From assembly GCA_964437365.1 (NCBI GenBank), contig CAYTGM010000009.1, forward strand, positions 80,444 to 144,443: a DNA stretch of 64,000 nt, read 5' to 3'. Below are positions 33,173 to 64,000 of the stretch, piece by piece. Position 1 is the stretch's first letter; each line of letters begins with the position of its first letter. Origin of the DNA: an uncultured Candidatus Sumerlaeota bacterium. Its GTDB lineage: Bacteria > Sumerlaeota > Sumerlaeia > SLMS01. The translations under genes were made by a program, and so were the position numbers. The notes under the pieces are model-generated. The model searched no databases and was not told the DNA's origin. It worked only from the letters and a program-made list of their open reading frames with translations.

Positions 33173-35956
33173 TTGAAGTTATCACGAACCGAACGAATTC
33201 CTGGCTGGTTACTGATCGTCGTTTTTCTGATCAGTTCGATCAGCACGACCGCACTTTCACAAGATCTCATCACCATCGGCGAAGAGCCGGATACTCCCAC
33301 TTCAGGTCCCTTTGGCGGTGTCCAGAATCTTCCCGATGCGCAAGACCGTTACAACTTTCGAGCTGAAGAAGGACTCGTCTTTGAAGGGAACGTAGCTTAC
33401 GGTGAAGGTCGCACAACCGTAGACTATGAAGAGTTCACCATGGAAGCGGATAAGATGGTGATCGACCTGACATCGGGTAATATCAGCGCAGAAGGTAACG
33501 TGATCTTCGAAGGCCCGACAGAATTCGTTCGCGCCGAGCGAGGTAAATTCAATCTATATACATCCGAGGGCGCAGCATTCGGTCTCGATGGTCAACAGTC
33601 AGATTTCTATTTCAAAGCTATTTGGGATGAGGAAAAGAACGGACCATCCTTTCGCCAGATAGACGAACAGACTTCAATTTTTCGTGGCAGCTATGTCACC
33701 ACAAGTTCCTTCCCTAAACCACAATACTACATTGCTTCTCAGGAAATCTTTTTCGTTAAGAATGAGCGCGTATTCTTCAAGAACCCTGTTCTGTGGGTGC
33801 GTGGCGTTCCTGTCATGTGGCTTCCATATTACTCACGCTCACTGACAGGTGGTTCCCCGTGGTCGTTTGAGTTTGGTTACGGAACTGAGTTTGGTGCTTA
33901 CGGCCGCTTAGGATACCGATATATCCATCAACATAAAGTGCCCTCTTTTGATGATCCTGAGGAATACGTGACCCGTTCCCACGGTCAGTTGGATGCGTTT
34001 CTCGACTGGTACTCGCGCCGCGGTACAGGATTCGGCGGTCGCTATACCTACCAGATCAACGAAGGACAGCATGTCGGCTATGTTGAGGCCTACGGGATTC
34101 GTGATCGAGAACGAGATCTCGAAGCTCAAGGACAGGAGCCCGAGGACGAGGAAGAACGCTGGGTTTATCGCCACAGAAATAATTCACAGATTATTGAAAA
34201 CAACCTCTACCTTCAGTTCGACATCGATGAAGTCAGTGATCCTGATGTCTACACAGACTTCCTTGACCGCTGGGCTGTTGATGGCGATTTCGAGAGAGGT
34301 CGTATGTTCGAGCGTGGCATGGAAGGCGCCATCACCTACCGCGATGACAATATGATTGCTCGCGTTGGTGCAGAACAGAAAGAACGCCTCGGCCGTGATA
34401 CCTATCAGGATCCTTCAGAACCAGGATCAGACGATTTGGATTTCGAACCAGACCTTCTCTTCCTTCTTCCAACAGATCCCATGGATCCTGAATACGACCC
34501 GATCGTTGAAGAAGATTTCGACGAAGATGGAATTGCAAGAAACCGCTTCGGCCGCGTTCGCGAGAATGTCTATGGCAAGCTCGCTTCACGCATGCTGAAC
34601 ATTGCAGGACAGAACCCCTTGTATGTCGACGGTAACGCCCGAGCCTTTAACAGTCTCGATAAAGGCCTCAACCCTGTTGATACAAGTGATGATACAAGAG
34701 TGCGTGGCGCAGACATCTTTGGCCAGGTCACACATCGTCTCCGGTTCGGAGAACGAACAACCTGGTTAAACTCCGTCGGGGCTGGCGCTGCTTCCTACAA
34801 AAGAGAAGACAGCATCCTCCTTCCTGAAGATGACATTAATGAAGCCGCCATCAAAACAGGCGAGGACATGTTCACCATCATTCCTCCCGAGCAGATGACC
34901 TATCCCGAACTTGGTGAAGGTGAAGAGTATGTGATTCCGGATGCACGCTTTGCAGATGAGGAAACTCTTATCCTCGGCGGTGAAGGGACGAGCACCGTTT
35001 CCTTCAACGACGCAGACAACACCTACTATTTCGGACAGCTTGATTCAAGGCTGAGTCACCGCTTCACAGAATTCCTGCAGGCGTATATCAGGTACTTTAT
35101 CCGTGAAGGCACTGATGACAGCCTTGGTGAAGTTTATGAGAGAATGGGTTATCAGGAAGCTTTCGAAGACGTTCATGATTTCTACACGAACCGTCACTTT
35201 GTCGAAGGCAATGCAAGCTACTTCCTCCGCTATCCAAACATCATTGTGAGTGTTCTGGCTCGTGAAAACCTCCAGTCAGGCGAGGATATTTATCCGAACG
35301 AACAGCTTCGCCTCGTGAGTTCTGGTATCACATATATCAGCCAGGAGCGTGATTTCCGAGCGCAGATCATCACCTTCTACGAAGAGCGTCAGATCCGCGA
35401 TCGTGACGATCCTAATAATTACGAGCAGCCAACCCTTGGCGGAAATATCGTCCTGCGCTATTTTCCCAAGCACTATCGTTACTGGGCACAGTTAATCACC
35501 AGCTGGTCACATCGACTTGAAGAAGACCCCGTCCAGCAGAGCGCCCAGGTTCGGCGTCGCTTTGATGAAGAAGATACAGAATTCATCATCGAACCAACAA
35601 TCGGACGTCAATTTGGTCCAAAGTACAAAGTTCAGGTCGGAGGTCGCTACAATACCCGTTACCAGATCTGGGACGAAGCTGGCATAACCATCATTCGAGA
35701 TCTTAAAGACGCCGAGTTCGGTATCTTTATGGGCGTCACCAACAATGAAAATGCGGCGCGTGAGAAAGAGGACGAGAATGATGAAGAGATTGCAGAAGCG
35801 GGCGATACAGATTTCGATGAGGATCGCGAGACGGTCTACGAGTTTGATGTCCGTGTGAACTTCCGATTCAAGATCGGTCGTGACGATCCAGGGCTCGGCC
35901 AGCGCTCTGTCATGACTCTCGGAGACGTGGAGCGCGAATCACAATTCGTCCAGTAA
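33173..35956 (+). CDS. lptD: LPS-assembly protein LptD-like outer-membrane protein (OstA N-domain plus large beta-barrel)
   Basis: Signal peptide. N-terminal OstA-like segment (EADKMVIDLTSGNISAEGNVIFEG). Length 927 aa with alternating beta-strand pattern and aromatic-rich C-terminus. Confidence 0.55.
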   Translation: MKLSRTERIPGWLLIVVFLISSISTTALSQDLITIGEEPDTPTSGPFGGVQNLPDAQDRYNFRAEEGLVFEGNVAYGEGRTTVDYEEFTMEADKMVIDLTSGNISAEGNVIFEGPTEFVRAERGKFNLYTSEGAAFGLDGQQSDFYFKAIWDEEKNGPSFRQIDEQTSIFRGSYVTTSSFPKPQYYIASQEIFFVKNERVFFKNPVLWVRGVPVMWLPYYSRSLTGGSPWSFEFGYGTEFGAYGRLGYRYIHQHKVPSFDDPEEYVTRSHGQLDAFLDWYSRRGTGFGGRYTYQINEGQHVGYVEAYGIRDRERDLEAQGQEPEDEEERWVYRHRNNSQIIENNLYLQFDIDEVSDPDVYTDFLDRWAVDGDFERGRMFERGMEGAITYRDDNMIARVGAEQKERLGRDTYQDPSEPGSDDLDFEPDLLFLLPTDPMDPEYDPIVEEDFDEDGIARNRFGRVRENVYGKLASRMLNIAGQNPLYVDGNARAFNSLDKGLNPVDTSDDTRVRGADIFGQVTHRLRFGERTTWLNSVGAGAASYKREDSILLPEDDINEAAIKTGEDMFTIIPPEQMTYPELGEGEEYVIPDARFADEETLILGGEGTSTVSFNDADNTYYFGQLDSRLSHRFTEFLQAYIRYFIREGTDDSLGEVYERMGYQEAFEDVHDFYTNRHFVEGNASYFLRYPNIIVSVLARENLQSGEDIYPNEQLRLVSSGITYISQERDFRAQIITFYEERQIRDRDDPNNYEQPTLGGNIVLRYFPKHYRYWAQLITSWSHRLEEDPVQQSAQVRRRFDEEDTEFIIEPTIGRQFGPKYKVQVGGRYNTRYQIWDEAGITIIRDLKDAEFGIFMGVTNNENAAREKEDENDEEIAEAGDTDFDEDRETVYEFDVRVNFRFKIGRDDPGLGQRSVMTLGDVERESQFVQ

Positions 35957-36387: not shown

Positions 36388-37989
36388 TCACTCTAGATTA
36401 TACTTCAGCATCTCAACCTTATGAGAATAGGTTTCTTCGTCCGTTCCCTTTCTAAGTAACTTTTTGAGGCGTACCATGGAATCACTGTCCTTTGTGTAAC
36501 GGAAGATTTCGTCCGGTTCACCTGATGCGATCCTCAGCCTTTCCAGCATCCTTGTGTCATCCGATAGAGCCCCCTTCTCTCGAGCACCTCTGATATAGAA
36601 CAGTGTTCCTTCATGGGGAAGATCTTCTGAGAAGAAGTCTTCTAATTCTTCTTCCATTTCAAGTTCTCGAAAGCCATGATAGATGGCGATGTCATCGAAG
36701 TAATACCAGCCTCGGTATCCCATGACCCAGCTATCAACGACAACGTAGACGGGCTTGCTCTCAGCAGACTTGACCTCTTCAACCATCTCGCCCCACTCGA
36801 TACGAAACGTCCAATTGTTATTTTCAGAGAACGTATAGATATGATAAACGGAATAGAGTGCTGGGAGAAAATAAAAGAAGCCTGTCGGAATGAGAATCTT
36901 TTTTGAAAAAAACGATATGAAGTAAACAATAATCACGATCATCAGTGGGGTGAGAAACGATAGACGTTCCCCATAGGCCATGACAGGCAGGTCTGGAAGG
37001 AAAAAGTAGAGAGTGAGGAAGCAGAGAGGCCCCATTGATACAATGATACAGAAAAGAAACTTAATAAACGCCTCACTTTCAAAGTCATCCTTCCTCGTGG
37101 CTGCAGAGATTAAACTATAGAGTACAAGGCAAATTGAGAGACCGACAGCCAGCAGTCCTGTTCCAACCAGGAACAGATGACTGATTTCAAGCGTATATCC
37201 AAAGAAGGCACTGTAGCCAAAGTAACCCAGGGCCATGATTGTTTCTTTCAATGTCATTGAGGACGAAACAGTTTCCTCATGATGAACAGTCAGACGCACA
37301 ATAAGAAAATAGATCTGTGGGATGTAGAGGATACTTGTCGAAGCCTGTAGAATAAAGAGCTGAAGCCCGGCATATATCCGTTTTCTAAGCCACCCGATCA
37401 ACCCCCACAGTCCCAGTATGGCGACGATGATCACACCAAGGTAATTCACATAGGCGAGAAATGTTGAGGCAAGAAAGAGCGCAGCGGCATTCCCTCTTTG
37501 TTGCCGTAGAGATCGATCATTCTTCACGAGGTTCCAGAAGAGGGCGAAACAGAGAATCGCCAGAAAATTCATCAGCGAGAAGTATTTGAAGAGCCTGTAA
37601 AGAAACAGATGATAGGGGGAGAGCACCAGAAGGATGATCGAAAGAGTGGCGACAGAGGAGGAGAGGTTTTGTCTAACCCAGATCGCAAAGGTTATCCAGG
37701 TCGCGAGCGCAAAAGGTAGAGAACTCAATCTGATAGCCAGAGGGCCGAGCCCGAAGACACCTGTCCAGCTCTTAATATAAATGAAATAGCCAGCTGGGTA
37801 ATTATCCTGTGCGAGAATTTTCCACATGTGCCTCCAGCTGTCATGGACCCGGAAGACATAGGCAGCCTCGTCGTTAGATAGTGGCGCATCATCAAGGCGC
37901 AGAGTGATGAGAATGGTTCCGATGGCGAAGAGGAGAAGGTCGATGGGTCGCAGACCAAAGAGAAATGTCTTTTGCTTGGGGGTTTCCAT
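36388..37989 (-). CDS. GT-C fold membrane glycosyltransferase, ArnT/PMT-like (GT39/GT83 family)
   Basis: N-terminal LDDAPLSNDEAAYVF (DE-motif loop) followed by ≥10 TM helices. Length 533 aa. Confidence 0.55.
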   Translation of the reverse strand: METPKQKTFLFGLRPIDLLLFAIGTILITLRLDDAPLSNDEAAYVFRVHDSWRHMWKILAQDNYPAGYFIYIKSWTGVFGLGPLAIRLSSLPFALATWITFAIWVRQNLSSSVATLSIILLVLSPYHLFLYRLFKYFSLMNFLAILCFALFWNLVKNDRSLRQQRGNAAALFLASTFLAYVNYLGVIIVAILGLWGLIGWLRKRIYAGLQLFILQASTSILYIPQIYFLIVRLTVHHEETVSSSMTLKETIMALGYFGYSAFFGYTLEISHLFLVGTGLLAVGLSICLVLYSLISAATRKDDFESEAFIKFLFCIIVSMGPLCFLTLYFFLPDLPVMAYGERLSFLTPLMIVIIVYFISFFSKKILIPTGFFYFLPALYSVYHIYTFSENNNWTFRIEWGEMVEEVKSAESKPVYVVVDSWVMGYRGWYYFDDIAIYHGFRELEMEEELEDFFSEDLPHEGTLFYIRGAREKGALSDDTRMLERLRIASGEPDEIFRYTKDSDSMVRLKKLLRKGTDEETYSHKVEMLKYNLE

Positions 37990-38484: not shown

Positions 38485-40641
38485 ATGCGCATAACTGTAG
38501 CTTACAATCTTAGGACCGAACTGTCGGAAGCTCAGGCTGAGCTTCTGTTGCAGGAAGATGTTGATCGTATTACAGAAGCATTATCCTCCCTGAAGCATCG
38601 TGTCACGGGAGTTGAGGTTTCAGGCAAGCCTGACAGGTTTATCGCCGAGCTTATCGACAGCGAGCCGGATCTTATCTTTAACGTTGCTGAAGGTCATGTG
38701 GGAAGCTCCCGGGAAGCTTTTTATCCTGGTCTATACGAGCAGATCGGTCTCCCATTCACCGGTGGAGACGCCTCTCTTCTCCACATGAACCTCGACAAGA
38801 ACCTGTCCAAGACAATTCTTGCCCAGAGAGGAGTAAGAGTTCCTAAAGGATTTCTGGCTACACGTGCTGACCAACCGCTGCCGGACGACTTGAATTACCC
38901 GGTGATTATCAAACCAAACTCTGAAGGATCTTCGAAAGGTATTACCGCTGACTCTGTTGTGGAAAACGCCGAGGCCTGCAGAAAACATCTGGAGAAAATG
39001 CTTAAGCTATATCCAGCGGGGATGCTGGTTGAAGAATTCATTTCTGGGCGGGAGCTAACGGTTCCTTATCTTGAGTGCTTTCCCGGCCGGTTCATGGAAA
39101 TTGTCGAACATACCTTTGATCTGGGTAAACTCAGCTCCAAATACAATATCTATGATTATGATATGAAGCAGGGTGGAGAGTCTTCTAAAGCTGTTGGCGT
39201 TGAATGCCCGACAAAACTGACAAAAGAGGAAAGAGCAACGGCTTATGAATTGGCACGCCAGGTTTTCGAAGTGATGCCATGCCCTGATTTTGGTCGTGTA
39301 GACATGCGCCTTAACGAAAAAGGGGAAGCTTATTTCATCGAACTGAACCCTCTTCCCAGCTTGCATCCGAATGCTTCTCTGATGACAGCGGGGCGATCCG
39401 CAGGTCTTGACTATAAGGAAATCATGCGCCTGATCATTCGATCCGCCGCCAAGAGGTATAATATTTCTCTCCGTCGACCGAAGAGGGCAGATATTGCCAG
39501 TGTACAGGAGGAGGGGGAAAGACCATCGGCACGGGATATGGGAATTCGTATCGGGCGACTGGACCCAGGAACTAACAATGCCATCACCGATGTCAAAGGG
39601 GTGAAAGTTGGCCATGTAACCATCATCCAGGATGATGTTCAAACGCCTGGTGTTACGGGAACCTCTTCTATTCGTACTGGCGTCACGGCTATTCTTCCTG
39701 CACCAGGCGATGTCTATCACAAGCGCCCTGTTGCGGGGGGCTTTATCCTCAACGGTGTTGGAGAAATGTCAGGGCTGAATCAGGTACTGGAGTGGGGCTT
39801 TCTCGAATCTCCCATCCTCTTAACCAATTCGCATTCCGTTGGTAAGATTCACTCAGGCGTTGTGACACACTACATGAAGCAGTTCCCCGAATTGGGCGCG
39901 AAAACAGATGTCATACTTCCTCTTGTGGGAGAATGCGATGATTCGTTCCTGAATGACGCCCGTATTGGTATATGCAGCTCTACGGACGCAACGAAGGCCA
40001 TACAGGCGGCTAAGGCGGGTCCTGTTGTTCAAGGCTCTGTCGGTGCAGGTACGGGAATGACCACATTCGATTTCAGCGGTGGAATAGGAACCTCGTCGCG
40101 TGTTCTTTCTTTCGACGCGATGACCTACACGGTCGGCGTTCTGGTCCTTTCCAATTTCGGCCGTCTATGCAACCTGACAATAGATGGAAGTGTGGTTGGT
40201 CGTCATCTCGACAACCAGTTTGATATACCTCGTCGTGAGAATAGCCATGGATCTGTTATCGTGGTGATCGCCACAGATGCACCGATGATGAGCAGTCAGC
40301 TGTGCCGACTGTCCAAGCGTGCTGCTCTGGGCCTTGGAAGGACAGGTTCCTTTGCTGCCTCCAGCAGTGGCGAAATCATCGTTGCTTTCAGTACGGCGAA
40401 CCGATTACCTCGGCGACCAGAAAAGCCAAATAAGGTGCTCAGCCTTGACTTTGTTCCAGACCAGATTCTCAATGGATTCTACGAAGCTGTCATTGAAGCG
40501 ACGGAAGAAGCTGTCATCAATGCAATCTTCTGCTCGCACGGCATGACAGGACGTGAAGGCAGACTCAGTCCCGCTATACCTCACGACAAGGTACTCGAAG
40601 CTCTTAACAAGGGAAGGAATATCCATGCTAGTAGTCAATAA
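38485..40641 (+). CDS. Fusion protein: N-terminal ATP-grasp D-Ala-D-Ala-ligase-like domain plus C-terminal DmpA/S58 (P1-type L-aminopeptidase/D-Ala-esterase-amidase) domain
   Basis: N-domain has Ddl-like features (PVIIKPNSEGSSKGI, GRVDMRLNEKGEAYFIELNPLP). C-domain, from ~aa 350, matches DmpA/ArgJ-like N-terminal-nucleophile S58 peptidases (GIRIGRLDPGTNNAITDVKGVKVGH...LLTNSHS...GSVGAGTGMT). Confidence 0.65.
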   Translation: MRITVAYNLRTELSEAQAELLLQEDVDRITEALSSLKHRVTGVEVSGKPDRFIAELIDSEPDLIFNVAEGHVGSSREAFYPGLYEQIGLPFTGGDASLLHMNLDKNLSKTILAQRGVRVPKGFLATRADQPLPDDLNYPVIIKPNSEGSSKGITADSVVENAEACRKHLEKMLKLYPAGMLVEEFISGRELTVPYLECFPGRFMEIVEHTFDLGKLSSKYNIYDYDMKQGGESSKAVGVECPTKLTKEERATAYELARQVFEVMPCPDFGRVDMRLNEKGEAYFIELNPLPSLHPNASLMTAGRSAGLDYKEIMRLIIRSAAKRYNISLRRPKRADIASVQEEGERPSARDMGIRIGRLDPGTNNAITDVKGVKVGHVTIIQDDVQTPGVTGTSSIRTGVTAILPAPGDVYHKRPVAGGFILNGVGEMSGLNQVLEWGFLESPILLTNSHSVGKIHSGVVTHYMKQFPELGAKTDVILPLVGECDDSFLNDARIGICSSTDATKAIQAAKAGPVVQGSVGAGTGMTTFDFSGGIGTSSRVLSFDAMTYTVGVLVLSNFGRLCNLTIDGSVVGRHLDNQFDIPRRENSHGSVIVVIATDAPMMSSQLCRLSKRAALGLGRTGSFAASSSGEIIVAFSTANRLPRRPEKPNKVLSLDFVPDQILNGFYEAVIEATEEAVINAIFCSHGMTGREGRLSPAIPHDKVLEALNKGRNIHASSQ

Positions 40642-41812: not shown

Positions 41813-43516
41813 CTACTGGTCAGTGGCGGGTTTCAGCCCCCAGGTTTTTCGCCACTCCTCGTCACTGACCCCAATCTTTATTTCAGTAATTTCCTGGCTC
41901 TCTCCGCTCTTCCTTCTTTCATACACCATAAAACCCAGTGCTGGATGAAAACTTGTCAGAAGGGTCGTCGGAGTATAGTTGTCCTGAATTTCTTTTAGCT
42001 GGAAGACTCTTCTAACACTGGCGACATTTGGCTGTAACCGGTAGGATTTTGGCCAATAGGTATCATCAAGGCATGTCTCAACAACCAGATAATCAGGAGA
42101 CCTTTCGAGTATATATTCCACTGACAGCCCATTGTGAGCGATATGGGAATCCATAAGACCCAGCAGATCCATGATGCGCTGATCGGGGTCTGTATAGAAG
42201 GCCCACTGCCCTAGCTGATCTCCCGCTATCAATGTATCTTTTGGAAGCTTCTCCGAGACCCACCTGCCGGCCTCTGCATTAAGATAAATTGGGTCGGAAT
42301 TATACCATTTTATTCGCTCCACTATGTCCCAGGTGTGTTTTTGAAATAACCTTGGCAGAATACGGGATTCTGGTGCATCCATGTTGCCAACTAAATATTG
42401 AGGCAGCACAGAGGTGGATCGAATCTGAACAGGCACCAGAAGAAGAAGGAATAAGCCGGGAAGCATCAGGACCTTAGACTGGGGTTGATGGGAATACTCA
42501 GCTTCCAGGTAGCGTGCAATTGCGACGAGCAATAACCAGCAGCCGATGACAACTGCAGGAAACAGAGGAGCGATATAGCGAAAAGCAATGTTCAGAAGCT
42601 GTCCCGCTTGAAGCTGAAAGAAGAAAGAGGCAATATATATCCCGATGACGCCGGCAGCCAAAGGTCGATATGTATCTATACGAAGGGCTAGAAAGGCACC
42701 TAAAAGTCCAAACAAGGGCAAAGCACCATTCGTAAGGACAAAGGCTACGATTGAATGCATGCCGCCACCCGAAGGGGTTTTGGCAATCATTGTATTCGGT
42801 ACTAACTCTCCGTAGTAGTAGAAGCGAAAACAAACCTGCACGAGAAAGGTCAACATGGCTGGAAGAAACACGATGAGGAACTCAACGACCTGCTTCATTT
42901 CAACGATGATCTCATTGGACCGTTTGATACGGGCAATCCAGCAGGGCGAGAGCGCGATTAGAAAGAGCAGTCCTTCTGGTCGTGTGATCGTCACGATTGC
43001 AAGAAGAATCCCCGGCAAGACACGGAGGCCTTTCAACGTATATAACAGCAGTGCTGAGCTGATCAGCGAAGCATAAAGAACCGTTTCGAGACCGCGGTCG
43101 TCATGATAATGAAGGAAGGGTTCCAGTGCCAGGGCGAGAGGAAGCCACCAGTTGAGCCAGCGAGCACGTTTCTCTGTTTTCGACGTTTCGGTGCAGTACC
43201 AGGCTGTAAAGACCAGGAGTATGAAGGAGAGCGAGGATATTGCTCTGCCTGCTGTATGTAACTTAACCCCCAACAATTCAAAAGGTGCGATCATAAGAAC
43301 CCATGCAAGGTTGGAGTAACCCTCCACATACTCGGCCCTGTTGTAGACAAGTCCCCAACCATTTGCGAAATTTCTGGCATAGCGATAAGAGATAAAAGCA
43401 TCCTCTCCCAGATGATTATAGGTCACCAGACAAAGCAGCGCCAGAACTGGGAGAAGAAGAGCTATATAGACATAAGAAGCAACAGTAGGACTGTTTGTAG
43501 TCTGATTCGGATTCAT
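41813..43516 (-). CDS. Polytopic membrane protein, putative GT-C-type glycosyltransferase with C-terminal periplasmic domain
   Basis: N-terminal EDAFISYRYARNFANGWG loop motif followed by ~11 TM helices and a ~200-aa soluble C-terminal domain. Start overlaps (ATGA) the upstream deacetylase gene. Confidence 0.5.
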   Translation of the reverse strand: MNPNQTTNSPTVASYVYIALLLPVLALLCLVTYNHLGEDAFISYRYARNFANGWGLVYNRAEYVEGYSNLAWVLMIAPFELLGVKLHTAGRAISSLSFILLVFTAWYCTETSKTEKRARWLNWWLPLALALEPFLHYHDDRGLETVLYASLISSALLLYTLKGLRVLPGILLAIVTITRPEGLLFLIALSPCWIARIKRSNEIIVEMKQVVEFLIVFLPAMLTFLVQVCFRFYYYGELVPNTMIAKTPSGGGMHSIVAFVLTNGALPLFGLLGAFLALRIDTYRPLAAGVIGIYIASFFFQLQAGQLLNIAFRYIAPLFPAVVIGCWLLLVAIARYLEAEYSHQPQSKVLMLPGLFLLLLVPVQIRSTSVLPQYLVGNMDAPESRILPRLFQKHTWDIVERIKWYNSDPIYLNAEAGRWVSEKLPKDTLIAGDQLGQWAFYTDPDQRIMDLLGLMDSHIAHNGLSVEYILERSPDYLVVETCLDDTYWPKSYRLQPNVASVRRVFQLKEIQDNYTPTTLLTSFHPALGFMVYERRKSGESQEITEIKIGVSDEEWRKTWGLKPATDQ

Positions 43517-54921: not shown

Positions 54922-55326
54922 ATGAAGAAAGCACTTCTTGCGCTCACATGCAGCCTGGGAATCGCACTGACCACAGGATGTACCTTTACAGGTTCAACAG
55001 ACCTTTCAAGAGTTGCCAACCACGCAGGTCTTACAAACGTAACAACTGGCGATGGTACATTTGAAGATTACACAGCAACGGGACATTATTCAGCGACAGA
55101 ATTTGGTATCGGTGTAGGTATCCCCATCATCTTTAAACTGCTCGAGATTTACCCTTCACTTTCTGATGAGGACCTCATGACCAGAACTGCTGAAGACGCT
55201 GCAGACGATGGCGCGAATGCTATGATCAATGCCAAGCCACCGAAGGGGTTATATACTGGAATTCCTTTCTTCTTCGTTGGACTCTATATCGATACAACTT
55301 CCGCGACTGGTATTGCCGTCGATTAA
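54922..55326 (+). CDS. Hypothetical lipoprotein
   Basis: Lipobox LTTGC after MKKALLALTCSLGIA. Length 134 aa. Confidence 0.55.
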   Translation: MKKALLALTCSLGIALTTGCTFTGSTDLSRVANHAGLTNVTTGDGTFEDYTATGHYSATEFGIGVGIPIIFKLLEIYPSLSDEDLMTRTAEDAADDGANAMINAKPPKGLYTGIPFFFVGLYIDTTSATGIAVD

Positions 55327-55352: not shown

Positions 55353-55382
55353 AACCTCCCGGATCACTCTGGGAGGTTTTTC
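55353..55382 (+). terminator. Rho-independent terminator in a convergent gene gap
   Basis: AACCTCCC-(10 nt)-GGGAGGTT followed by TTTTCG. Confidence 0.6.
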
Positions 55383-55384: not shown

Positions 55385-58300
55385 TTATAGATGTCCGATA
55401 AACCTGGCTGCTTTCCTTCCAGCCGCTTCCATAAACTCGAGAATTCGAACAAGTTCATTTCTCGTTAGGTTCTTTCCATCACGCGTTTCAACGAGTATTA
55501 AACGTGAGGTCTCATTTACATCCTTCTCCAATGCAAAGCTCACTGGTAGTATTTCACTATTCAGTGTGAGCATGTCTGAAAGAATAGCTGCTTCATTTAA
55601 CTTCTCTTTTGATATAGTTAAAGGCATTCTGATTTCAAGTCTGTCATTCCTGACTCGTAAGTCCATAGTACGATCGGTTACGCCTGAAAGTCTAAAGATA
55701 CCTTTCCCGGTTTCTTCAACAGTATATCCATTCGATTCAAAGCAGGCCCTCATGGAGCCAACCTCAATAAACTCGCCTCTTTGATCCGGCAGTTCCCCCT
55801 TCTGTATGGCATTGAGAGTGCTCTCCAAATCTGGGAACGAGGCCGTAAGTCTTAGATTATTCAAGGTACTTTCAATTGCATGCAGGGTGTCTTCGGAGAA
55901 TGTGAGCTGACTTTGAGCAGCGCTACCCTTCATCGAAGTTATGTTTCGGGCTATTTGATCGAGTGAATCCTTAAGCTCCTGGGGAAAAGGTAGCTCCTCT
56001 GAAGCCCGGCCTGCACGAAACTCGTTGAGCTGAGCAAGCGAACTCTCAATTTTCTCAAAAATGGGTTTCAGCTCTTGAGTTGCTGTTGGTGCCAGAGCCG
56101 CAACACTGGCCGAGAGATTCTCGAGCCCAGCCAGCTTTGAAGAAATTGCGTGGATGTTTTCGGATAAGGAGTTTAATTCAAGGAGTGCCTGAGCCATGGA
56201 ATCTCCGTCTTGCATACCCAGCATTTTCTGCTTCTTTTGAAAGGTCTCTTTGATCTCCTCCCATCTGTCTTTTTCTTGTTCTGAGATGAGGCCTGTCAGT
56301 TCTTTGAATTTCAGTAGATTAGCTTCTGCTCCTTTGGTCAGAGTTTGTGATTCACCCTGGTAGTGAGCTAGGATTAGTGAGGTCAGCTCTTCATCGTTCA
56401 TAACCGGCAGTACTTTTTCAGCAAGTCGGTTCATATTCCTGTAAGACCCCTGAAGCTTGAATGGCGGTTCAGTACGATATAAATCTTCCTGAGCTGCGGA
56501 TCGTATGTACTCTTCATTAACTCGAAGTATCACATCTCGAACTCTGAATAGCTTCTTCAGGACATTGGTATAATCACTCATCTCGGATGCAGAATAAGAA
56601 CCTTCAAAGCCAATGTCGGCCTGGGACCTTCCTTTTGCGAGCGCTATAAGTTTGTAAATATCTTTCTGGCTCTTATGAGAAAGAGGGGCGAGAATTGGAT
56701 TTGATGTCAGACAGTTTTCGATATAGCTCTGTTCGAAAGCTTCATTATAATCGCCAAGTATATCTCCGAGGTTGTAGGTGTCTGCACGGTTTGCGAGCAT
56801 ATCAGGTATCTGGAATTTTCCGCCACTCTCGGTGTAAGGGTTTCCTGCCATTACCACGGCCACCTTTCGACCACGCAAATCGTAAGTCTGGCTTCGTCCT
56901 CTCCATATACCTTCTATACGCCTTTGGCCATCACAAAGTGATATAAACTTCTGGAGGAACTCGGGATTGCAGTGCTGGATGTCATCGAGATAGATCATAA
57001 TATTATCCCCCATCTCGAGAGCAAAATTCAACTTTTCAATCTCTTCTTTGGCCGCTGCATTAGGAGCATCAAGTGGATCCAGTGAAGTAACAGCGTGACC
57101 GATTGAAGGTCCGTTCACCTTGACGAAAATTACTCCAAGCCTGCTGGCGATATATTCCATGAGAGTTGTTTTCCCATACCCCGGAGGTGAAATCAGAAGG
57201 AGAAGGCCCATCAGGTCAGTGCGTTTATCCGACCCCGCCACACCTATCTGCTTCGCCAGGTTATCACCGATCATCGGAAGATATACATCATTGATTAGTT
57301 TGTTTCGAACGAATGAAGTGAGTACTCTTGGTTCAAACTCTTTGAGCCTAAGGTCTTCTCGGTAGTGCTCTGCGAGATACTTTTTTCTTTCAGAGTATCG
57401 GCGGTATTTTGGGAGATCGTATTCCAAAAACCGTGAAAGTCGTCCCATGAATTCAGAAAAGTCCAGTTTCAGTACCCCATCAGATATGACCGGATGCATT
57501 CCCTTCATGCCTTCCAGATTCTGGATGAGCTCTACTGCGTGTACCGATGATCTATTGAATGTCCCGGTGGTTATGATCGCTGCGGCTTCATCAACAAACC
57601 TTAGCAGGTGGTCATTCTCTGAATGGTGCAGGAAACCGCTAAGCCAGCCTCGCAAGAGCTGGAATCCGCCTTGAACATCATCCTTCAAGGTATTCAAAGT
57701 CTTGTCTAGAGCATCACTCTGATGGATTTCTGTGAGGTGCTGTATGAATTCGTCATGAAGTTGAGCAGCTTCAGAACTAATGATCATACTCTCTCTAAGA
57801 GCAACCTCCTCAAACAGATAACTTGCAGCATCCGTCACATATTCTTCCGCGTAGAAGGAATGCATTCTATTGAATTGCTCCATCTCTGCCCGGAGACGAT
57901 CCTTGGCGAGTCGAAATTCACTCAGCTCGCCGAATCGCTTTACAGCCTCACCCATTCCCTTAAGTAGATAGATATATCCATCTTTGTTATTCTCTTTGAG
58001 TCCCCTGTACCAGAAGAGTCGAGCAAGAGAGCGAGACTGTGGTTCAAACCTGAGCAGGTCTGCCTCCCCTCTCAGGTTCAACAGTGCTGCCAGGATTCTA
58101 GTCGCGTCGATATCGTGTACTCCCTTTTGATACCCCTCATCAAATCTGGGACTCATAAACTTCTGAACTGTTTCAAGAAGTTTTTCACGTGTATAACCGG
58201 CCAGCCCATCCAGGCTTGGAAGTGATTTCATTCCGGCTTCTGTGAGCATGAGATATGCAAGATACTCTGACCGATAAACCTGCTGGTTTTCTGAAATATA

Positions 58301-61006
58301 CTCTCTAGCCCAGTAGGGTTTCAGTCTATTCAGTTCCTCATCATTAATGGGCTCAAAAAAATTCGTCCCTGTGATGTGAACATTCATTTTGTTCTCACGA
58401 ACCAGGAAAGACATCTCAGTCTTTTGGCGGTTCACGGAAAAAACATGCTTTCCAAACCTGATGAGGTGATCGCCATCTGCTGAGAGCTCATGACGGTCCT
58501 TCAACTGACGAATCGCATTCTCCTGTACCGACTTCAATCGGGATTCGACCTCATCAGATTTGACTGTGTCACCCAACTCTATGAGTTGGTGCACCAGGTT
58601 TCGCACCTTGTCGACCATCAGGTCCCCAGCGAAATAGGCATTTATTTCGGTGATCTCTTTGAGCGAGTCTACACGTGACTTAACTGCATTAAGAATTCGA
58701 TCTGCTGATTTGGCAATTGAGTCGATCCGACGATTCTTTTCTTCAACCAGTGCGAGTTTCTTCGATTCAAAAGCGGAAGCGATCTCGCTACGTTTCTCAG
58801 AGAGCTTGATAACATATTCATCAAAATCAGCAAATCTACCCTCGAGATCCTCCACCTGAACCATAAGTCTGTTTTCGTTTTCGTCGCATTTCTCCGGTGA
58901 ATCAGAGATATCCAGGTAGCTCAAAATACTCTGCTCAAGGAGTTTCATTTGGGCAGTAAACTCAGCAACAGCTTCTTTGCTTTGTAAGGATTTCTTTCGA
59001 TTACGAAGGTCCGCTCTGACCGTGTTCAGATTCGTCAGGATACCAGAGCAGCCGTCTATAATCTGTGTGGACTTTGTTGCATCATCTATACGAAGATTCC
59101 CAACTACGTCGATCAGTGTTTCAATTTCATTCGAAATTTGCGTGACAGATTTCTGGATCTCTTCTGCATCGCTTGCCTTAGCCAACTCTTCTGTTTCCTG
59201 TGTGACTTGACTGACCATTTCATGGTAGGAATCAAGAGCCTCTGGCTTTAGAAGAAAATCTACGCAGTGGGTGGATAATGCTTCAATTCTTTCCTTTGAT
59301 AACGACTCTAATTCGTCAACCACATCATTGTCTACATACCTTAGCTCTCGCAGATTAACCAGCCTGCCCCGAAGCTTCCTGAATTCGTAAAGCGCAGATA
59401 CGAACTCGTTGGTAGATGTCAATAGATCAGGTTTGTGCTGACTGAGTAGTTTCTTTGTATGTTTCTCTACTTCGTGGACTTCATCCTGAGTTGACCTTTT
59501 AATCTCACGAACCTTGTCAAACTCGTCGATCGCTGCAGAGGCGGTTTCACGTATATCAGAAAGAACCGATGCAAGACCATGAGCTTCTTCGTGAGACAAC
59601 CAGAAGTAGGCATCCAGAAGATCTTGCGTTGTATCAAGAATATCATCATAGAGATTCTGATAGATTTCCTCTCGCCGTATAAGATTGATGATGCTTTGGC
59701 ATTCTGCCATGCAGCGAACAAGTTCTTTATTTCCTATCTTTGCAAGGAAAGACCCTTCTACGACGGGTGGTTTATAATCAGGTGAGACAAAAGGTGTCTG
59801 CCAGATTTGAACTGTATGGTGCTTTTGCGGTGAATCTTCAGAGCGAAAGTAAAGTAGTTCCCCCTGACGGAAGAAGCAATGACCATTGCATTGTATAGGC
59901 GTTGCTATCGAACGAGAAATAACATTGTAGCTCAGGAGAACATAGTGCCCGGTTTCGCTCTGGTAAAACACGTACATACTGTCTTCGCCATTCGGTGAGA
60001 CGATACGTCTTTCAAACATCAGATCGTCGGGATTGTAATTGAACTTCTTGTACTCACCGGAGATTAAATAGTAACCATTCGGAAAGATGAGTCCGTGATC
60101 ATCAGGCAGTAGTATACATGACTCGCCAATCGAGTCGACTCTTACAACCTGCTTAATCTTTTCGTTAAAGACGAAGTATCTGAAATTGTCCTCTCGGTAT
60201 GGTTTGATTCTAAGTAAAATGAGCGGACCTAACTCTGTAAACTGTATATCCGCATCATCGAGCTTTTGTTCTTTATGGTCGACCTGTTCACCATAGATAC
60301 CCTCGCCAGACTCGGTGTTATCTTCTATCTTGATCGTCAAATCTCCACCTATACACTCAACGAACACTCTATCATGAATGCTTACATGGGGGTGGCGACC
60401 TTCTCGAAAATAATCACGATTCGTTCTCGTCCACTCAAACTCTTGTTGTTTAGGGAATTTGTACTCGTGGTCACTTCTGTTGTCGAGGTACTCAAGTGAC
60501 CCATCGGGTTTCATTAGCCACTTGAAAGTCTTGATATCGGACCCACTCTTACCTATTTGAAAGATCATGAACAGGTTTGGACCCGAAATCCAGAATCGCG
60601 CGAAAATGGTTTGTTTGTAGTATTTGTAGAGGTTTTCAAAGTCCTTCAGAAACTCACTGTCATCAAGAATAGAAAGACCCTGCTCTTCAAATTCCTGATC
60701 ATTGAGTCTGTATATAGAAAAAACATCTTTCACTTCCGTCGTTGATTTCAGACCGAATGTTACATTGTATGCGAAGATAAAGACATCACCAATGGCGACG
60801 ATATCTCTAGGTGTACAATTATGCTCAGTTGTAATTCGCTGGGTAGATAGAAGCTGTGCACTAACAGAGCCGAAGGTTTCCTGTCTATCCTGGTTCAGTG
60901 AATTAAGGGACCCATTGAGCCGTTCACCTTGTTCTTCAAGACGCTTCTTCAGTATTTCGTATGTGCCACCCTCCAGGGTGATCTGTTCATTCTTTTCTTC
61001 AGCCAT
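55385..61006 (-). CDS. Giant (1873 aa) coiled-coil protein with a single embedded MoxR/AAA_5-type ATPase core, function unknown
   Basis: Walker A LLLISPPGYGKTTL (~57173-57190 nt). Walker B IMIYLDDIQHCNPEFLQKF. AAA_5 sensor-like VAVVMAGNPYTESGG...LANRADTY. Long heptad-rich regions flank the ATPase. N-terminal ~450 aa is non-coiled. Confidence 0.7.
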   Translation of the reverse strand: MAEEKNEQITLEGGTYEILKKRLEEQGERLNGSLNSLNQDRQETFGSVSAQLLSTQRITTEHNCTPRDIVAIGDVFIFAYNVTFGLKSTTEVKDVFSIYRLNDQEFEEQGLSILDDSEFLKDFENLYKYYKQTIFARFWISGPNLFMIFQIGKSGSDIKTFKWLMKPDGSLEYLDNRSDHEYKFPKQQEFEWTRTNRDYFREGRHPHVSIHDRVFVECIGGDLTIKIEDNTESGEGIYGEQVDHKEQKLDDADIQFTELGPLILLRIKPYREDNFRYFVFNEKIKQVVRVDSIGESCILLPDDHGLIFPNGYYLISGEYKKFNYNPDDLMFERRIVSPNGEDSMYVFYQSETGHYVLLSYNVISRSIATPIQCNGHCFFRQGELLYFRSEDSPQKHHTVQIWQTPFVSPDYKPPVVEGSFLAKIGNKELVRCMAECQSIINLIRREEIYQNLYDDILDTTQDLLDAYFWLSHEEAHGLASVLSDIRETASAAIDEFDKVREIKRSTQDEVHEVEKHTKKLLSQHKPDLLTSTNEFVSALYEFRKLRGRLVNLRELRYVDNDVVDELESLSKERIEALSTHCVDFLLKPEALDSYHEMVSQVTQETEELAKASDAEEIQKSVTQISNEIETLIDVVGNLRIDDATKSTQIIDGCSGILTNLNTVRADLRNRKKSLQSKEAVAEFTAQMKLLEQSILSYLDISDSPEKCDENENRLMVQVEDLEGRFADFDEYVIKLSEKRSEIASAFESKKLALVEEKNRRIDSIAKSADRILNAVKSRVDSLKEITEINAYFAGDLMVDKVRNLVHQLIELGDTVKSDEVESRLKSVQENAIRQLKDRHELSADGDHLIRFGKHVFSVNRQKTEMSFLVRENKMNVHITGTNFFEPINDEELNRLKPYWAREYISENQQVYRSEYLAYLMLTEAGMKSLPSLDGLAGYTREKLLETVQKFMSPRFDEGYQKGVHDIDATRILAALLNLRGEADLLRFEPQSRSLARLFWYRGLKENNKDGYIYLLKGMGEAVKRFGELSEFRLAKDRLRAEMEQFNRMHSFYAEEYVTDAASYLFEEVALRESMIISSEAAQLHDEFIQHLTEIHQSDALDKTLNTLKDDVQGGFQLLRGWLSGFLHHSENDHLLRFVDEAAAIITTGTFNRSSVHAVELIQNLEGMKGMHPVISDGVLKLDFSEFMGRLSRFLEYDLPKYRRYSERKKYLAEHYREDLRLKEFEPRVLTSFVRNKLINDVYLPMIGDNLAKQIGVAGSDKRTDLMGLLLLISPPGYGKTTLMEYIASRLGVIFVKVNGPSIGHAVTSLDPLDAPNAAAKEEIEKLNFALEMGDNIMIYLDDIQHCNPEFLQKFISLCDGQRRIEGIWRGRSQTYDLRGRKVAVVMAGNPYTESGGKFQIPDMLANRADTYNLGDILGDYNEAFEQSYIENCLTSNPILAPLSHKSQKDIYKLIALAKGRSQADIGFEGSYSASEMSDYTNVLKKLFRVRDVILRVNEEYIRSAAQEDLYRTEPPFKLQGSYRNMNRLAEKVLPVMNDEELTSLILAHYQGESQTLTKGAEANLLKFKELTGLISEQEKDRWEEIKETFQKKQKMLGMQDGDSMAQALLELNSLSENIHAISSKLAGLENLSASVAALAPTATQELKPIFEKIESSLAQLNEFRAGRASEELPFPQELKDSLDQIARNITSMKGSAAQSQLTFSEDTLHAIESTLNNLRLTASFPDLESTLNAIQKGELPDQRGEFIEVGSMRACFESNGYTVEETGKGIFRLSGVTDRTMDLRVRNDRLEIRMPLTISKEKLNEAAILSDMLTLNSEILPVSFALEKDVNETSRLILVETRDGKNLTRNELVRILEFMEAAGRKAARFIGHL

Positions 61007-61012
61007 GACAAA

Positions 61013-63097
61013 TTAGGATCCAACATATTTTGAGGCTGGCTGACTATCTATACCCCATTTTTCAGCGACCCCTAGAAATCCCTGAAGAGTCTGTTTCATT
61101 TGGGTAGAGTCGGTCATCGACATCATTTTCATAATCAGGGCAGAAACAGAGAGATTCTTAATGTCCTCACTGCTTATTCCAAAACTGTCTATCATATCCT
61201 TCAGGCCTTCAAAGTCATCCGAACCCAGAATTTTTTCCTCCAACCGAGTAAGCGTCTCGCTATTACCTACAAGTCTATCGACGTATTTGCCCTGGGTAAT
61301 GGCGTTGGAGATTCGATCAAAGAACTGCATCTCACCGCCAACAATATCAATCTTGGCAGTCTCGAGAGCCTTTCCAAGGACCTCTGCCTGAGTCTTTGCG
61401 ATATCAGTCCGAATGTTGATTTCAGCCAGCTCGATCTCTTTTTCCTTATCCAGCTTCAGCTTGAATTCTTCATGCTCGCGTCCGACTCCATCAAGTTTCT
61501 TCATGGCCTCGGCCTTCTTCTCAACTCCTTCAGCTTCTGCACCATGCTTTTCCCTTAAACCAATTGCTTCCGCACGAGCTCTCTTCTCGAGCACTTCAGC
61601 CTCTACATTTCCCTCTTTGAGTTTTGCCGATGCCATCGCGTCTATAACGGCAGCTTCTGCCTCCCCTTCTTTCCTTCTCGCGAGAGCTTTCGCCTCCATC
61701 ACATTTGCCTCTGCCAGACCTTGCACAGCCGCTTCGGCTTTTCTGGCATCTGCGATCGTTTTCATCGCTTGGGCTCGTTTGACAGAAGCCTCCTGTTCAG
61801 CGCCTGCCTTAATGAGTTCCCTCTCACGCTGTGAAGTTGCCGCCAGTTTTTCAGCCTCTGCTTCCTTCGTTTTTTGAATCAGTTTCTGCTCAGCAATTTC
61901 TTCGGCCTTTGTTGTCGCAACTAGCTTCTCCCTCTCCGCAAGAGCCTTTGCCCTCGTATCCTTGATCGCCTCTTCCTCTTGAACAACTGCCTTTTCAACG
62001 ATGACCCGTTCTCGAATGACATCTTGAATATTCTTACGTTCTTCTTCGACCGCTTTCTCTTTTTCTATTTGAGCAATGGTCACGATTCTTTCGCGTTCAT
62101 TGACTTCGAGCATACGGTCACGCTCCACGCGTTCCGACTCCACTGCATCGGTACGTTCTTTATTGCGCGTGGCGACAATGACCTGTCTATCCTTGTTCTG
62201 TGTAGCGACTTCAATCTTCTCCTCCGCTTCAATGCGAGCAGCCTCTGATTTTTCCAGTTCCTCAGCCTGAACTCTTTTGATAGATGCTTCCTCACGGGCT
62301 TTGATGTGAGCAATTTCACGCTTTTGAATCTCTTCCTTCTCTGCCAATTGACGCTGGAGCTGAAGTATGGCCTCCTGAGCCTCCACATCCTGCTTGGTAA
62401 TTGTTTTCTCTTTGTCACGGTTTATGTAGTTCGCGAGCGTAAGCTGATGTGAAGTGAGATCGGTGATCTTCTTGATACCTTCAGCATCAAGAATATTGTC
62501 TGGATCCAAGACCTCTTTAGGGGTCTGCTCGAGATAATCGATAGCTGCATCATCAAGAACGTAACCATTCAGATCTCTCCCTATGATCTTTAGAATTTCC
62601 TCTTTGAACTTCTCTCGGGAGTTGTAGAGCTCAACAAAATCAAAGTGTTTACCAACAGTCTTGAGCCCTTCGGAAAACTTCGCGTCGAAAAGCTGGAAGA
62701 GCATATCAGGGTCTGAAGCACGAGCACATCCAACTGATTGCGCGACCCTCAATACGTCTGTTTCCGTCTTATTGACCTGAACAAAGAAGGCTACCTTGAT
62801 GTCGGCGCGCATGTTGTCCTTACAAATAAGTCCATTCTTCCCGGTTCGCTCTATCTCAATACGCTTCAGCGATATATCCATCACCTCAACATTGTGAACG
62901 AATGGCGTATAGAGCATACCAGTGAAAGAAATAACTGGTTGTTTCGAGAATATACCACCGGTTCGAACCAGAGCCTGTCCCTGTTTGGTTTTTTTGTAAA
63001 AGAAAGCAGTGAGCATGAATAATCCCCCAAGGAGTATGATGAAAAAGAGAAAGATTCCAGACAGAATATAAGCGAGTAGTATCAGGAGACTGACCAT
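61013..63097 (-). CDS. Flotillin-like SPFH/band-7 protein with extended E/A/K-rich repeat region
   Basis: N-terminal TM helix. SPFH core (ALVRTGG...KDNMRADIKVAFFVQV). About 300 aa of EA-rich coiled coil. Flotillin C-terminal block AKIDIVGGEMQFFDRI. Six-nt gap to the giant ATPase gene. Confidence 0.75.
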   Translation of the reverse strand: MVSLLILLAYILSGIFLFFIILLGGLFMLTAFFYKKTKQGQALVRTGGIFSKQPVISFTGMLYTPFVHNVEVMDISLKRIEIERTGKNGLICKDNMRADIKVAFFVQVNKTETDVLRVAQSVGCARASDPDMLFQLFDAKFSEGLKTVGKHFDFVELYNSREKFKEEILKIIGRDLNGYVLDDAAIDYLEQTPKEVLDPDNILDAEGIKKITDLTSHQLTLANYINRDKEKTITKQDVEAQEAILQLQRQLAEKEEIQKREIAHIKAREEASIKRVQAEELEKSEAARIEAEEKIEVATQNKDRQVIVATRNKERTDAVESERVERDRMLEVNERERIVTIAQIEKEKAVEEERKNIQDVIRERVIVEKAVVQEEEAIKDTRAKALAEREKLVATTKAEEIAEQKLIQKTKEAEAEKLAATSQRERELIKAGAEQEASVKRAQAMKTIADARKAEAAVQGLAEANVMEAKALARRKEGEAEAAVIDAMASAKLKEGNVEAEVLEKRARAEAIGLREKHGAEAEGVEKKAEAMKKLDGVGREHEEFKLKLDKEKEIELAEINIRTDIAKTQAEVLGKALETAKIDIVGGEMQFFDRISNAITQGKYVDRLVGNSETLTRLEEKILGSDDFEGLKDMIDSFGISSEDIKNLSVSALIMKMMSMTDSTQMKQTLQGFLGVAEKWGIDSQPASKYVGS

Positions 63098-63549
63098 GGA
63101 AGCTTGCCCTAAAAATCTGATTTCGAAATCAGAACATCAAAGATTTGATGAATATACCACACCAACATGAGTTTATTCTGCGGACCAACAAGAAATATTT
63201 AACTTTTTGTTCTTCTCTCTGAACTCAACACCTCGCAGACTTCAAAGCCTGAGGAGCTCTTTCTCGATAAAGGATACAGGTAACCCATGAAAGAGTCCTG
63301 GTTAAATACGTCACCAGCACACCTTTTGTAAACAACCGCTCTACGCCCAAGCTAAAATAAACTTCCCAGCCTCATCGCCTTGAAGGTTGACTAACAAGAC
63401 AGACTTTTATAGTCGTTTCTTACGATACCTCATATCAAGATCTCTTCATACGACACCATCCTTCAGTCGATATAAGCAACGCTCGCTGGACCCATCTGTT
63501 TCAGGTGTCCCTCAGAGATCTCTTACGATACCCATGAAAGCTTGTAGCC

Positions 63550-64000
63550 ATGCCAGAGACAACGACTCGTCGTGGTTTCTTTTCCTCTTTTTCCGCAGAT
63601 CTGCGTGGAGAGGGATCGGACCCGTATTGCCTATCCTCTGATCCACCGCCCCTCCCAACCCTGGGACAACATGCTGCCCAGAGACTCCAGTTTGGTGCCC
63701 TGCCGGGAGATTCGGCCAGAATCGACTCTATCGGACTATCCGCTTTTCTCGATGAACAACTGAACCCCGAAACAATCGATGATTCCGCCTGCGATGATCG
63801 CATCGCCCAGGAAAACCTGGTAACGCTCACTGAATCCTGGGCCCAACTGTTCGATCGTCGCAGTGGCCAGGGTTATTCGACTTCCGTTCAACCTTTCCGC
63901 GAGGTCAGACATGCAACATGGATTCGTCAGACAATATCAAAGTGCCAACTTTTCGAGCGCGTTGTAAACTTCTGGCACGATCACTTCAATGTGGAAGGCG
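63550..64000 (+). CDS. DUF1800 family protein, 3'-truncated at window edge
   Basis: N-terminal Tat-like TRRGFFS motif. DUF1800 signatures AAQRLQFGALPGD...FLDEQL and VVNFWHDHFNV. Frame is open to the window end. Confidence 0.6.
   Translation, partial: MPETTTRRGFFSSFSADLRGEGSDPYCLSSDPPPLPTLGQHAAQRLQFGALPGDSARIDSIGLSAFLDEQLNPETIDDSACDDRIAQENLVTLTESWAQLFDRRSGQGYSTSVQPFREVRHATWIRQTISKCQLFERVVNFWHDHFNVEG

Follow-up and report, generated by a model that had tools for sequence, protein, structure and literature searches.

A stripped-down variant of a known flotillin and giant AAA+ ATPase module in a Sumerlaeota genome, with a putative CesT/Tir-like domain fused to the ATPase

A known gene pair and its relatives

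The stretch of DNA analysed here (the window) comprises 64,000 nucleotides of an uncultured Candidatus Sumerlaeota bacterium (assembly GCA_964437365.1, contig CAYTGM010000009.1, positions 80,444 to 144,443) and contains two adjacent genes, one encoding a flotillin-like SPFH membrane scaffold (geneA) and the other a giant AAA+ protein (geneB). The pairing of a flotillin with a giant ATPase is a known and widespread module, which was described in 2024 within phage-shock-protein (membrane stress) gene clusters, and the locus in the window is a stripped-down two-gene variant of it, in which the ATPase appears to carry a CesT/Tir-like domain fused to its C-terminal end. In our main reading, to which we assign a probability of about 0.6, this abbreviated module is coupled to flotillin and uses ATP to remodel sub-membrane assemblies in envelope-stress maintenance.

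GeneA occupies positions 61013 to 63097 of the window and encodes 694 aa, and geneB occupies positions 55385 to 61006 and encodes 1873 aa; both genes, and all features of them given below, are on the minus strand. The junction reads TAA-TTTGTC-ATG, with a gap of 6 nt between the stop codon of geneA and the start codon of geneB, so the two reading frames and their spacing, which had been proposed in a first-pass annotation made from the sequence alone, are confirmed by the open reading frame (ORF) call and by the junction itself. For both proteins, the closest relatives with a name come from metagenome-assembled genomes of Sumerlaeia, with 49-58% identity.

Homologs of the geneB protein are numerous, as more than 4376 of them share the same Pfam set at approximately 50% identity over approximately 88% of the length, in at least 8 phyla, and most are named "DNA repair ATPase" at NCBI. 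The protein's N-terminal domain was found in 728 representative clusters at 50% clustering among 1.8 billion; in almost all of the best 150 of these 728 clusters the domain begins at the N-terminus or close to it, and many of the proteins measure 1600-1930 aa, while the shorter ones may be fragments. In a scan of 185,579 species genomes, one for each species, at least 596 loci were confirmed, and 80 loci were analysed, with adjacency counted only in the 63 informative loci that had at least 2.5 kb of upstream sequence. A geneA homolog is located directly upstream of the geneB homolog, on the same strand, in 61 of these 63 loci (97%), and the loci cover Planctomycetota, Verrucomicrobiota, Bacteroidota, Desulfobacterota, Kiritimatiellota, Omnitrophota, Hydrogenedentota and Clostridia. 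The conservation of the adjacency, which the first-pass annotation had put forward as something to be checked in related genomes, is in this way established for at least 8 phyla. In the reverse direction, a DUF3686-AAA gene was present downstream in three of four sampled loci of geneA homologs. The products of the two genes almost certainly work together.

Further members of the neighbourhood vary between lineages. It had been noted earlier that the usual partners of flotillins and of MoxR ATPases, NfeD and VWA proteins, are both absent from the locus. This is correct for the window, since searches of the 64 kb with tblastn and hidden Markov models (HMMs) revealed no YqiJ/NfeD-like, PspA or stand-alone CesT_Tir_1 gene, and no VWA gene flanks the pair, but it does not hold for NfeD-like proteins in the relatives, where a YqiJ/YuaF (NfeD-like) gene precedes the flotillin gene in 58 of 61 loci. 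The product of this gene has approximately 225 aa and several transmembrane (TM) segments, and these neighbours gave weak NfeD/YqiJ_N matches in Pfam together with one confident YqiJ_N match. VWA genes are absent from the conserved neighbours of all 80 loci. Further upstream, 14 of 20 Bacteroidota loci have a PspA_IM30 gene and 12 of 20 a CesT_Tir_1 gene, accompanied in this phylum by a divergent helix-turn-helix (HTH) regulator. Outside Bacteroidota, PspA was found upstream in none of the 38 loci with at least 2.5 kb of sequence upstream of the flotillin gene.

The first-pass annotation took the pairing to be undescribed, which proved not to be the case. The paper of Ravi et al. (mSystems 2024, PMC11237479; bioRxiv 2020) describes an operon composed of CesT/Tir-PspA together with a band-7/flotillin protein, an AAA+ ATPase and a YqiJ/YuaF protein with three TM segments, and states that abbreviated operons (band-7/flotillin with YqiJ/YuaF, sometimes with the AAA+ ATPase) are widely distributed. 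In the Dokdonia donghaensis row of Table S3 of the same source, the gene order is the same as in the Bacteroidota loci analysed here. The pairing itself is therefore already known from comparative genomics and is not a discovery of ours. Our literature searches found no experimental work on the flotillin and giant ATPase module, and no paper on DUF3686 or PF12458, or on an operon of a flotillin with a DNA repair ATPase.

Several side observations were made on the operons of the relatives. In approximately 20 of them ORFs are located between the geneA and geneB homologs, and these were considered as possible extra components of the module and rejected, as they are heterogeneous, most are mutually dissimilar and several look like selfish elements. 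Examples are the ORFs at 7525-7944 in locus L020, 7532-7906 in L072, 7536-7958 in L046, 7341-7898 in L049 and 7500-7928 in L051, with others at 5662-6186 in L035 and 6802-7251 in L047; only two small groups (L020 with L072, and L046 with L049 and L051) contain similar members. From our own reading of the sequences, we take them to resemble GxxExxY-type nucleases, DUF559-like endonucleases and IS200/REP-type transposases. Because small ORFs sit in this spacer in several genomes, the polarity of the operon seems to tolerate insertions between the two genes. Extra small genes are also carried by long-form operons, at 5022-8008 in L084 (Pontibacter sp. SGAir0037, CP028092.1), 8164-8712 in L086 and 1874-2389 in L089. 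In long-form operons, PLDc_2 and PLDc_N (phospholipase-D-like) genes adjoin the HTH and PspA genes, and at two long-form loci the long flotillin is directly preceded by a gene for another Band_7 protein, a short one of 171-182 aa. Phospholipase D is present in some Proteobacteria according to Ravi et al. (PMC11237479).

Domain content of the two proteins

The AAA+ core of geneB extends over aa ~1259-1460 (56627 to 57232) and is matched by the Pfam families AAA_5 (E = 3e-7) and AAA (E = 1e-6). The matches of both families fall at aa 1269-1392 and are weak but above threshold, with 30.9 bits for AAA_5 against a cut-off of 22. The following motifs of such an ATPase can be read in the sequence: the Walker A motif SPPGYGKTT at aa 1273-1281 (57164-57190), the Walker B motif MIYLDD with D1341 and D1342 (56975-56998), where DD stands in place of DE, the sensor-1 region VMAGNPY (56834-56854) and, 3' of it, the arginine of the NRAD segment in LANRADTY (56774-56797). 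Residues K1279, D1341, D1342, N1389, R1407, R1511 and R1523 show no variation among the homologs (120 of 120), and of these N1389 and R1407 are candidates for sensor-1 and the arginine finger, with R1511 and R1523 in the lid, roles that are assigned by position only. From this sequence evidence the ATPase is probably active in spite of the DD in Walker B. The earlier proposal of a single MoxR-type AAA core in geneB is thus upheld, the motifs being invariant and the AAA_5 match above its cut-off.

The AlphaFold2 (AF2) model of aa 1200-1873 (predicted local distance difference test, pLDDT, of 81) contains an AAA+ core with its lid, then a long stretch of helix and, at the C-terminus, a well-predicted alpha/beta domain, and the pLDDT of the core is mostly 80-97. 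After the Walker B helix and before the sensor-1 strand the model has a beta-hairpin (residues 164-177 of the segment), a candidate pre-sensor-1 hairpin, and in the helix-2 region it predicts an irregular insert rather than a hairpin. When the model was compared with PDB by Foldseek, 339 matches were obtained at E ≤ 1e-3, and all of the 50 best listed were AAA+ proteins. Ranks 1-4 of the search with the core were occupied by NorQ (9qh8, E = 4.7e-6, template-modelling score TMt 0.59) and CbbQ (6l1q), followed by MCM, RuvB, ClpB-D2 and Vps4. As modelled, the fold is closest to that of the MoxR-type remodellers, with a small lead over MCM and RuvB (E of 5e-6 compared with 1e-5). A P-loop fold other than AAA+, which had been raised as the alternative for this region, is not borne out, because the model is canonical and NorQ and CbbQ are the top structures.

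At the N-terminal side, geneB begins with a DUF3686 domain (aa 30-468, 59603 to 60919), which consists of a leading helix and a beta-propeller-like all-beta domain and is matched by Pfam PF12458 with E = 1.2e-187; NCBIfam has no match for this domain. It is followed by a coiled-coil-like region at aa ~450-850 (58457 to 59659), as seen in a crude profile of heptads and of proline and glycine (P/G) content, and this region includes DUF7902 (aa 589-673, 58988-59242; Pfam PF25472, E = 2e-23). At aa 851-1230 (57317 to 58456) there is a conserved middle region, not coiled-coil-like and with a higher content of P/G and aromatic residues, in which many residues are invariant (G845...D967) and which belongs to no Pfam family. 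The first-pass annotation had assigned ~700 aa of heptad-rich helix to this part of the protein, and that figure has to be reduced: by the crude heptad measure, ~400 aa are coiled-coil-like, and the ~380 aa that follow are the conserved middle region just mentioned. C-terminal of the core, the lid and the long helical region take up aa ~1473-1735 (55802 to 56590) in the secondary structure predicted by AF2, with high pLDDT up to approximately aa 1600 and values of 42-75 thereafter.

The last ~125 residues of geneB form the putative CesT/Tir-like domain (type III secretion system chaperone/YbjN-type) at aa 1749-1872 (55391 to 55762), predicted with a pLDDT of ~87-95 and the topology alpha-beta4-alpha2-beta2-alpha. 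Among the 120 best homologs, the domain is restricted to the 9 closest (P0001-P0009) and is not found in the other 111. CesT_Tir_1 of Pfam matches 8 of the 9 members of this clade, with a best E of 2.6e-6 and E = 0.003 for the protein of the window, while TY-Chap1 matches 3 of the 9. Alignment by hhalign of the C-terminal domain with the stand-alone CesT_Tir_1 proteins encoded beside PspA gave a probability of 61% (E = 7.9e-5, 104 columns), against at most 0.4% for unrelated neighbour families used as controls; the result for an HMM of the stand-alone CesT_Tir_1 neighbours run against the giant proteins was marginal. The AF2 topology is compatible with the assignment. The contexts that were viewed within the clade are short: the window, P0241 and P0004 have geneA and geneB only, P0003 has a small Band_7 gene before the pair, and P0009 has a YqiJ-like gene before it. 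None of these five contexts has a separate CesT or PspA gene, and the YqiJ-like gene is missing in four of the five. With moderate confidence, sequence and model together point to a CesT/Tir-like adaptor that is fused to the ATPase motor in the minimal form of the module. Since it is fused in the clade of the window and encoded separately beside PspA in Bacteroidota, the adaptor and the ATPase may be suggested to act in one complex.

The geneA protein has an N-terminal hydrophobic anchor at aa 3-33 (62999 to 63091), which reads SLLILLAYILSGIFLFFIILLGGLFMLTAFF and is an unbroken run of 31 hydrophobic or small residues in front of the SPFH domain. The SPFH/Band_7 domain itself is located at aa 36-180 (62558 to 62992) and was matched by Pfam PF01145 with E = 8e-8 and a score of 33 bits (cut-off 23.6), a match that was obtained only when aa 1-299 were scanned alone, without the low-complexity coiled coil, as the scan of the full-length protein gave none. 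Then comes a coiled-coil region rich in E, A, K and R at aa ~200-560 (61418 to 62500), about 350 aa long, in which a crude measure gives a P/G fraction of 0-0.06 and an EKRQA fraction of 0.42-0.72. The architecture of TM segment, SPFH domain and extended coiled coil proposed at first is therefore supported by the hydrophobic run, the Band_7 match and the practically P/G-free region. A profile of 30 sequences gave a weak match of the coiled coil to that of the SPFH protein QmcA (8z5g), and nothing else meaningful came from sequence searches of PDB with whole geneA, its N-terminal part, its C-terminal part or the profile; NCBIfam has no match for the protein.

The conserved C-terminal block of geneA (61016 to 61402) contains AKIDIVGG at aa 581-588 (61334-61357), and its invariant columns in 30 homologs are A581, I583, I585, G587, G588, F592 and F593. 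What had been called a flotillin C-terminal block is in this respect present and conserved, but its connection with the Pfam family Flot (PF15975) was not recovered, as neither the full protein nor its C-terminal fragments matched at E ≤ 0.1, and just one of the 30 homologs did (E = 0.0057). For this reason we call geneA flotillin-like and do not treat it as a verified flotillin. Its homologs, more than 8000 at 55-73% identity, are named "flotillin family protein" or "YqiK" in their sources (NCBI, JGI).

Proposed mechanism and alternative explanations

The gene structure, the domain content, the conserved adjacency, the intact set of ATPase motifs and, with moderate support, the fusion are shown here, and from them we infer an oligomeric state, a physical contact between the two proteins, a substrate and a physiological role for the module. 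To hypothesize, the SPFH domain and the long coiled coil of geneA would let it oligomerise into a flotillin assembly that is anchored in the membrane, at the cytoplasmic face. GeneB, having no TM segment, would be cytoplasmic and would form an AAA+ ring through its MoxR-like module, with the long helical arms and the beta-propeller-like heads docking onto the flotillin assembly. Hydrolysis of ATP could then remodel, disassemble or recycle the scaffold or its client proteins under envelope stress, and the CesT/Tir-like domain may be the client adaptor, joined to the C-terminal end of the ATPase in the clade of the window and provided by a separate gene next to PspA in Bacteroidota. A role in membrane repair or membrane stress, which had been suggested from the outset, fits the PspA, CesT and YqiJ context of the relatives.

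An alternative that we regard as unlikely, though it deserves attention, is that geneB acts in bacteria as a functional counterpart of Vps4 whose substrates are polymers of the PspA/ESCRT-III type, with the flotillin serving only as a recruiting platform and the CesT/Tir-like domain as an adaptor to PspA. The direct position of CesT_Tir_1-PspA upstream of YqiJ-flotillin-AAA in 12-14 of 20 Bacteroidota loci and in Pontibacter CP028092.1 would be explained in this way, and so would the CesT-like domain fused to the ATPase in the clade of the window. A 2025 review (PMC7619361) states that a Vps4-like ATPase appears to be absent in bacteria, and Ravi et al. (PMC11237479) propose ESCRT-like roles for AAA+ proteins linked to PspA. 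However, PspA is not linked outside Bacteroidota (none of 38 loci) or in the window, and the invariant partner is the flotillin and not PspA; the AAA+ domain is MoxR-like instead of belonging to the classical Vps4/meiotic clade, no MIT-like domain was recognised, and this CesT family is not known to bind PspA. Because the flotillin is a near-universal partner and PspA is linked in Bacteroidota only, we rank a flotillin-coupled remodeller above a dedicated PspA disassemblase. The reading with PspA is still the most interesting of the alternatives, since bacteria are said to lack a Vps4-like regulator of PspA (PMC7619361) and since in B. subtilis PspA is recruited by an SPFH protein (PMC8581546, PMC10936438). 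The bolder form of the idea, that geneB is the missing bacterial counterpart of Vps4 and disassembles or recycles PspA/ESCRT-III-type (perhaps also flotillin) polymers on flotillin platforms, with the CesT/Tir-like module as substrate adaptor, is in our opinion more doubtful still; if it were true, the fusion would be the first direct architectural link of adaptor to motor.

Two further explanations seem much less probable than these. A membrane-associated anti-phage system of the abortive-infection type, a role mentioned as a speculation in the first-pass annotation, could account for the patchy distribution across phyla, for the defence-like or mobile neighbours of some relatives (Schlafen/AlbA_2 and AAA_15/21-methyltransferase genes at L082/L083, an integrase and RVT at L084) and for the small selfish genes inserted repeatedly between the two genes. 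It is nevertheless improbable, given that PADLOC-DB v2 has no match for geneA and only mad8 for geneB, at a noise-level E of 0.046 over 32 P-loop residues, that no relatives were found in 2.9 million IMG/VR viral contigs, and that the sequence is conserved to an unusual degree for a defence gene (~50% identity over ~1650 aa between phyla, 728 clusters), while the flanks in the window are housekeeping genes and the conserved partners are membrane-maintenance proteins. Least credible of all is the explanation contained in the database names, according to which geneB would serve as an ATPase in DNA repair and would lie beside a flotillin gene only incidentally. It draws on the words with which Pfam describes DUF3686 ("ATPase involved in DNA repair"), on the corresponding name at NCBI and on weak RuvB_N matches, but these matches are confined to ~50 residues around Walker A, with 25 bits against a cut-off of 282. 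Domains for DNA binding or of the nuclease or helicase kind were not detected in geneB, the adjacency to membrane proteins is kept in 97% of the informative loci, and nothing was found in the literature under DUF3686 or PF12458. As the similarity to RuvB concerns only the P-loop, we reject this annotation, and the label "DNA repair ATPase" has no visible basis in the family of geneB.

The flotillin-coupled remodeller is of interest because the module is common and very strongly conserved, and bacterial flotillins and PspA are central to the organisation and repair of membranes. The review cited above knows of no Vps4-like ATPase that regulates PspA polymers in bacteria (PMC7619361), and since such an ATPase is said to be missing, a dedicated ATPase with a coupling to flotillin, and to PspA in some lineages, is an obvious candidate regulator. 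What the window adds is modest, namely the minimal two-gene form and, specific to its clade, an ATPase with a fused CesT/Tir-like domain; this fusion speaks for adaptor and motor acting in one complex and offers a simpler system for experiments, which the family merits.

Setting in the window and comparison with known systems

The chromosomal setting of the pair is ordinary, of a housekeeping or envelope-related kind, with accB/accC, an Asp23 protein, a DUF3352 protein, cysS, glycosyltransferases and envelope/glycan genes around it. Upstream of geneA, the divergent region of approximately 450 bp that had been described from the sequence is indeed intergenic, from 63098 to ~63545, and contains no ORF; we presume that it is the promoter region, and a sigma-70 scan of it returned background level only. 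On its other side, near 63545, an ORF with a signal of the twin-arginine translocation (Tat) type begins on the plus strand, divergent from geneA. This ORF (63545-64000) has the Tat-like N-terminus MPETTTRRGFF..., also contains ...FWHDHFNV and leaves the window at 64000; by our own reading of the sequence, the latter motif presumably places it near the DUF1800 proteins. Downstream of geneB, a GC-rich hairpin is located between the convergent genes at 55353 to 55382 (dG -15.5 kcal/mol, z -2.2). It had been taken for a terminator flanking the pair, and the hairpin exists, but it was not reported by the consensus terminator scan, and its T-run is on the plus-strand side only, with none on the strand of geneB. 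Because of the position of the T-run we assign it to the convergent plus-strand gene at 54922-55326, which it suits, and not to geneB.

Some observations stand apart from the pair. The plus-strand gene at 38485-40641 of the window encodes an unusual ligase-peptidase fusion of 718 aa, in which an ATP-grasp domain of the D-Ala-D-Ala-ligase type (aa ~104-318, E = 7e-29) is joined to Peptidase_S58/DmpA (aa 365-693, E = 2e-104). Large ORFs of the window that have no Pfam family at E ≤ 1e-5 are those at 33173-35956 (+, 927 aa), 41813-43516 (-, 567 aa) and 36388-37989 (-, 533 aa). At the JGI metagenome contigs L082/L083, which carry P0241, the nearest relative of the pair in the window, the flanks are a Schlafen/AlbA_2-HATPase_c_4 gene and an AAA_15/AAA_21-methyltransferase fusion, which are typical of defence islands; this is a single locus, and the flanks in the window are different.

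An oligomeric SPFH scaffold of the membrane that is coupled functionally to an AAA+ machine is known from the complexes of HflK/C with FtsH and of prohibitins with the m-AAA protease. The 24-mer cage of HflK/C is cited in PMC10936438. FtsH is a membrane-anchored AAA+ protease of the classical clade, whereas geneB has neither a protease domain nor a TM segment, its core is MoxR-like, it carries huge coiled-coil and propeller-like extensions, and its physical coupling to the scaffold is putative. The NfeD2-flotillin operons yqiJ-yqiK of E. coli and yuaF-floT of B. subtilis (SPFH2 subfamily; Hinderhofer et al. 2009, PMC2636767) have in common with the present locus a flotillin-type protein with TM segment, SPFH domain and coiled coil, and the YqiJ/YuaF-like gene stands before it in the 58 of 61 relatives counted above. 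Unlike the window, those operons have no AAA+ gene; in the window the flotillin, with 694 aa, exceeds theirs in length, no NfeD-like gene is present and the giant ATPase follows.

With the MoxR remodellers (NorQ-NorD, CbbQ-CbbO and RavA-ViaA), geneB shares the pattern NPxxxxGxxxxP/ xxxRxD and the AAA_5 match above the cut-off, the hairpin of its model being a candidate for the pre-sensor-1 hairpin, and it differs from them in the lack of a VWA/MIDAS partner gene, in having its ATPase module inside a protein of 1873 aa and in the DD of its Walker B motif. The similarity to Vps4 with ESCRT-III lies in an AAA+ ATPase that is linked genomically, in Bacteroidota, to PspA of the ESCRT-III superfamily and to SPFH proteins, but geneB is homologous to Vps4 by the AAA+ fold only, with no recognised MIT domain, and the linkage to PspA is restricted to a lineage. 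A connection between PspA and SPFH proteins exists also in B. subtilis, where YdjI, an SPFH protein, is reported to connect PspA with the membrane (PMC8581546; Makarova et al. 2024, PMC10936438).

The closest system is the PspA-associated operon of Ravi et al., itself known from comparative genomics alone. The window is different from it in having no YqiJ/YuaF, no PspA and no separate CesT/Tir gene, and also in the C-terminal CesT_Tir_1-like domain of its ATPase, a fusion that the available part of that paper does not mention. The architecture and the order of the last two genes are the same, and the Bacteroidota loci analysed here show the full operon with the DUF3686 family.

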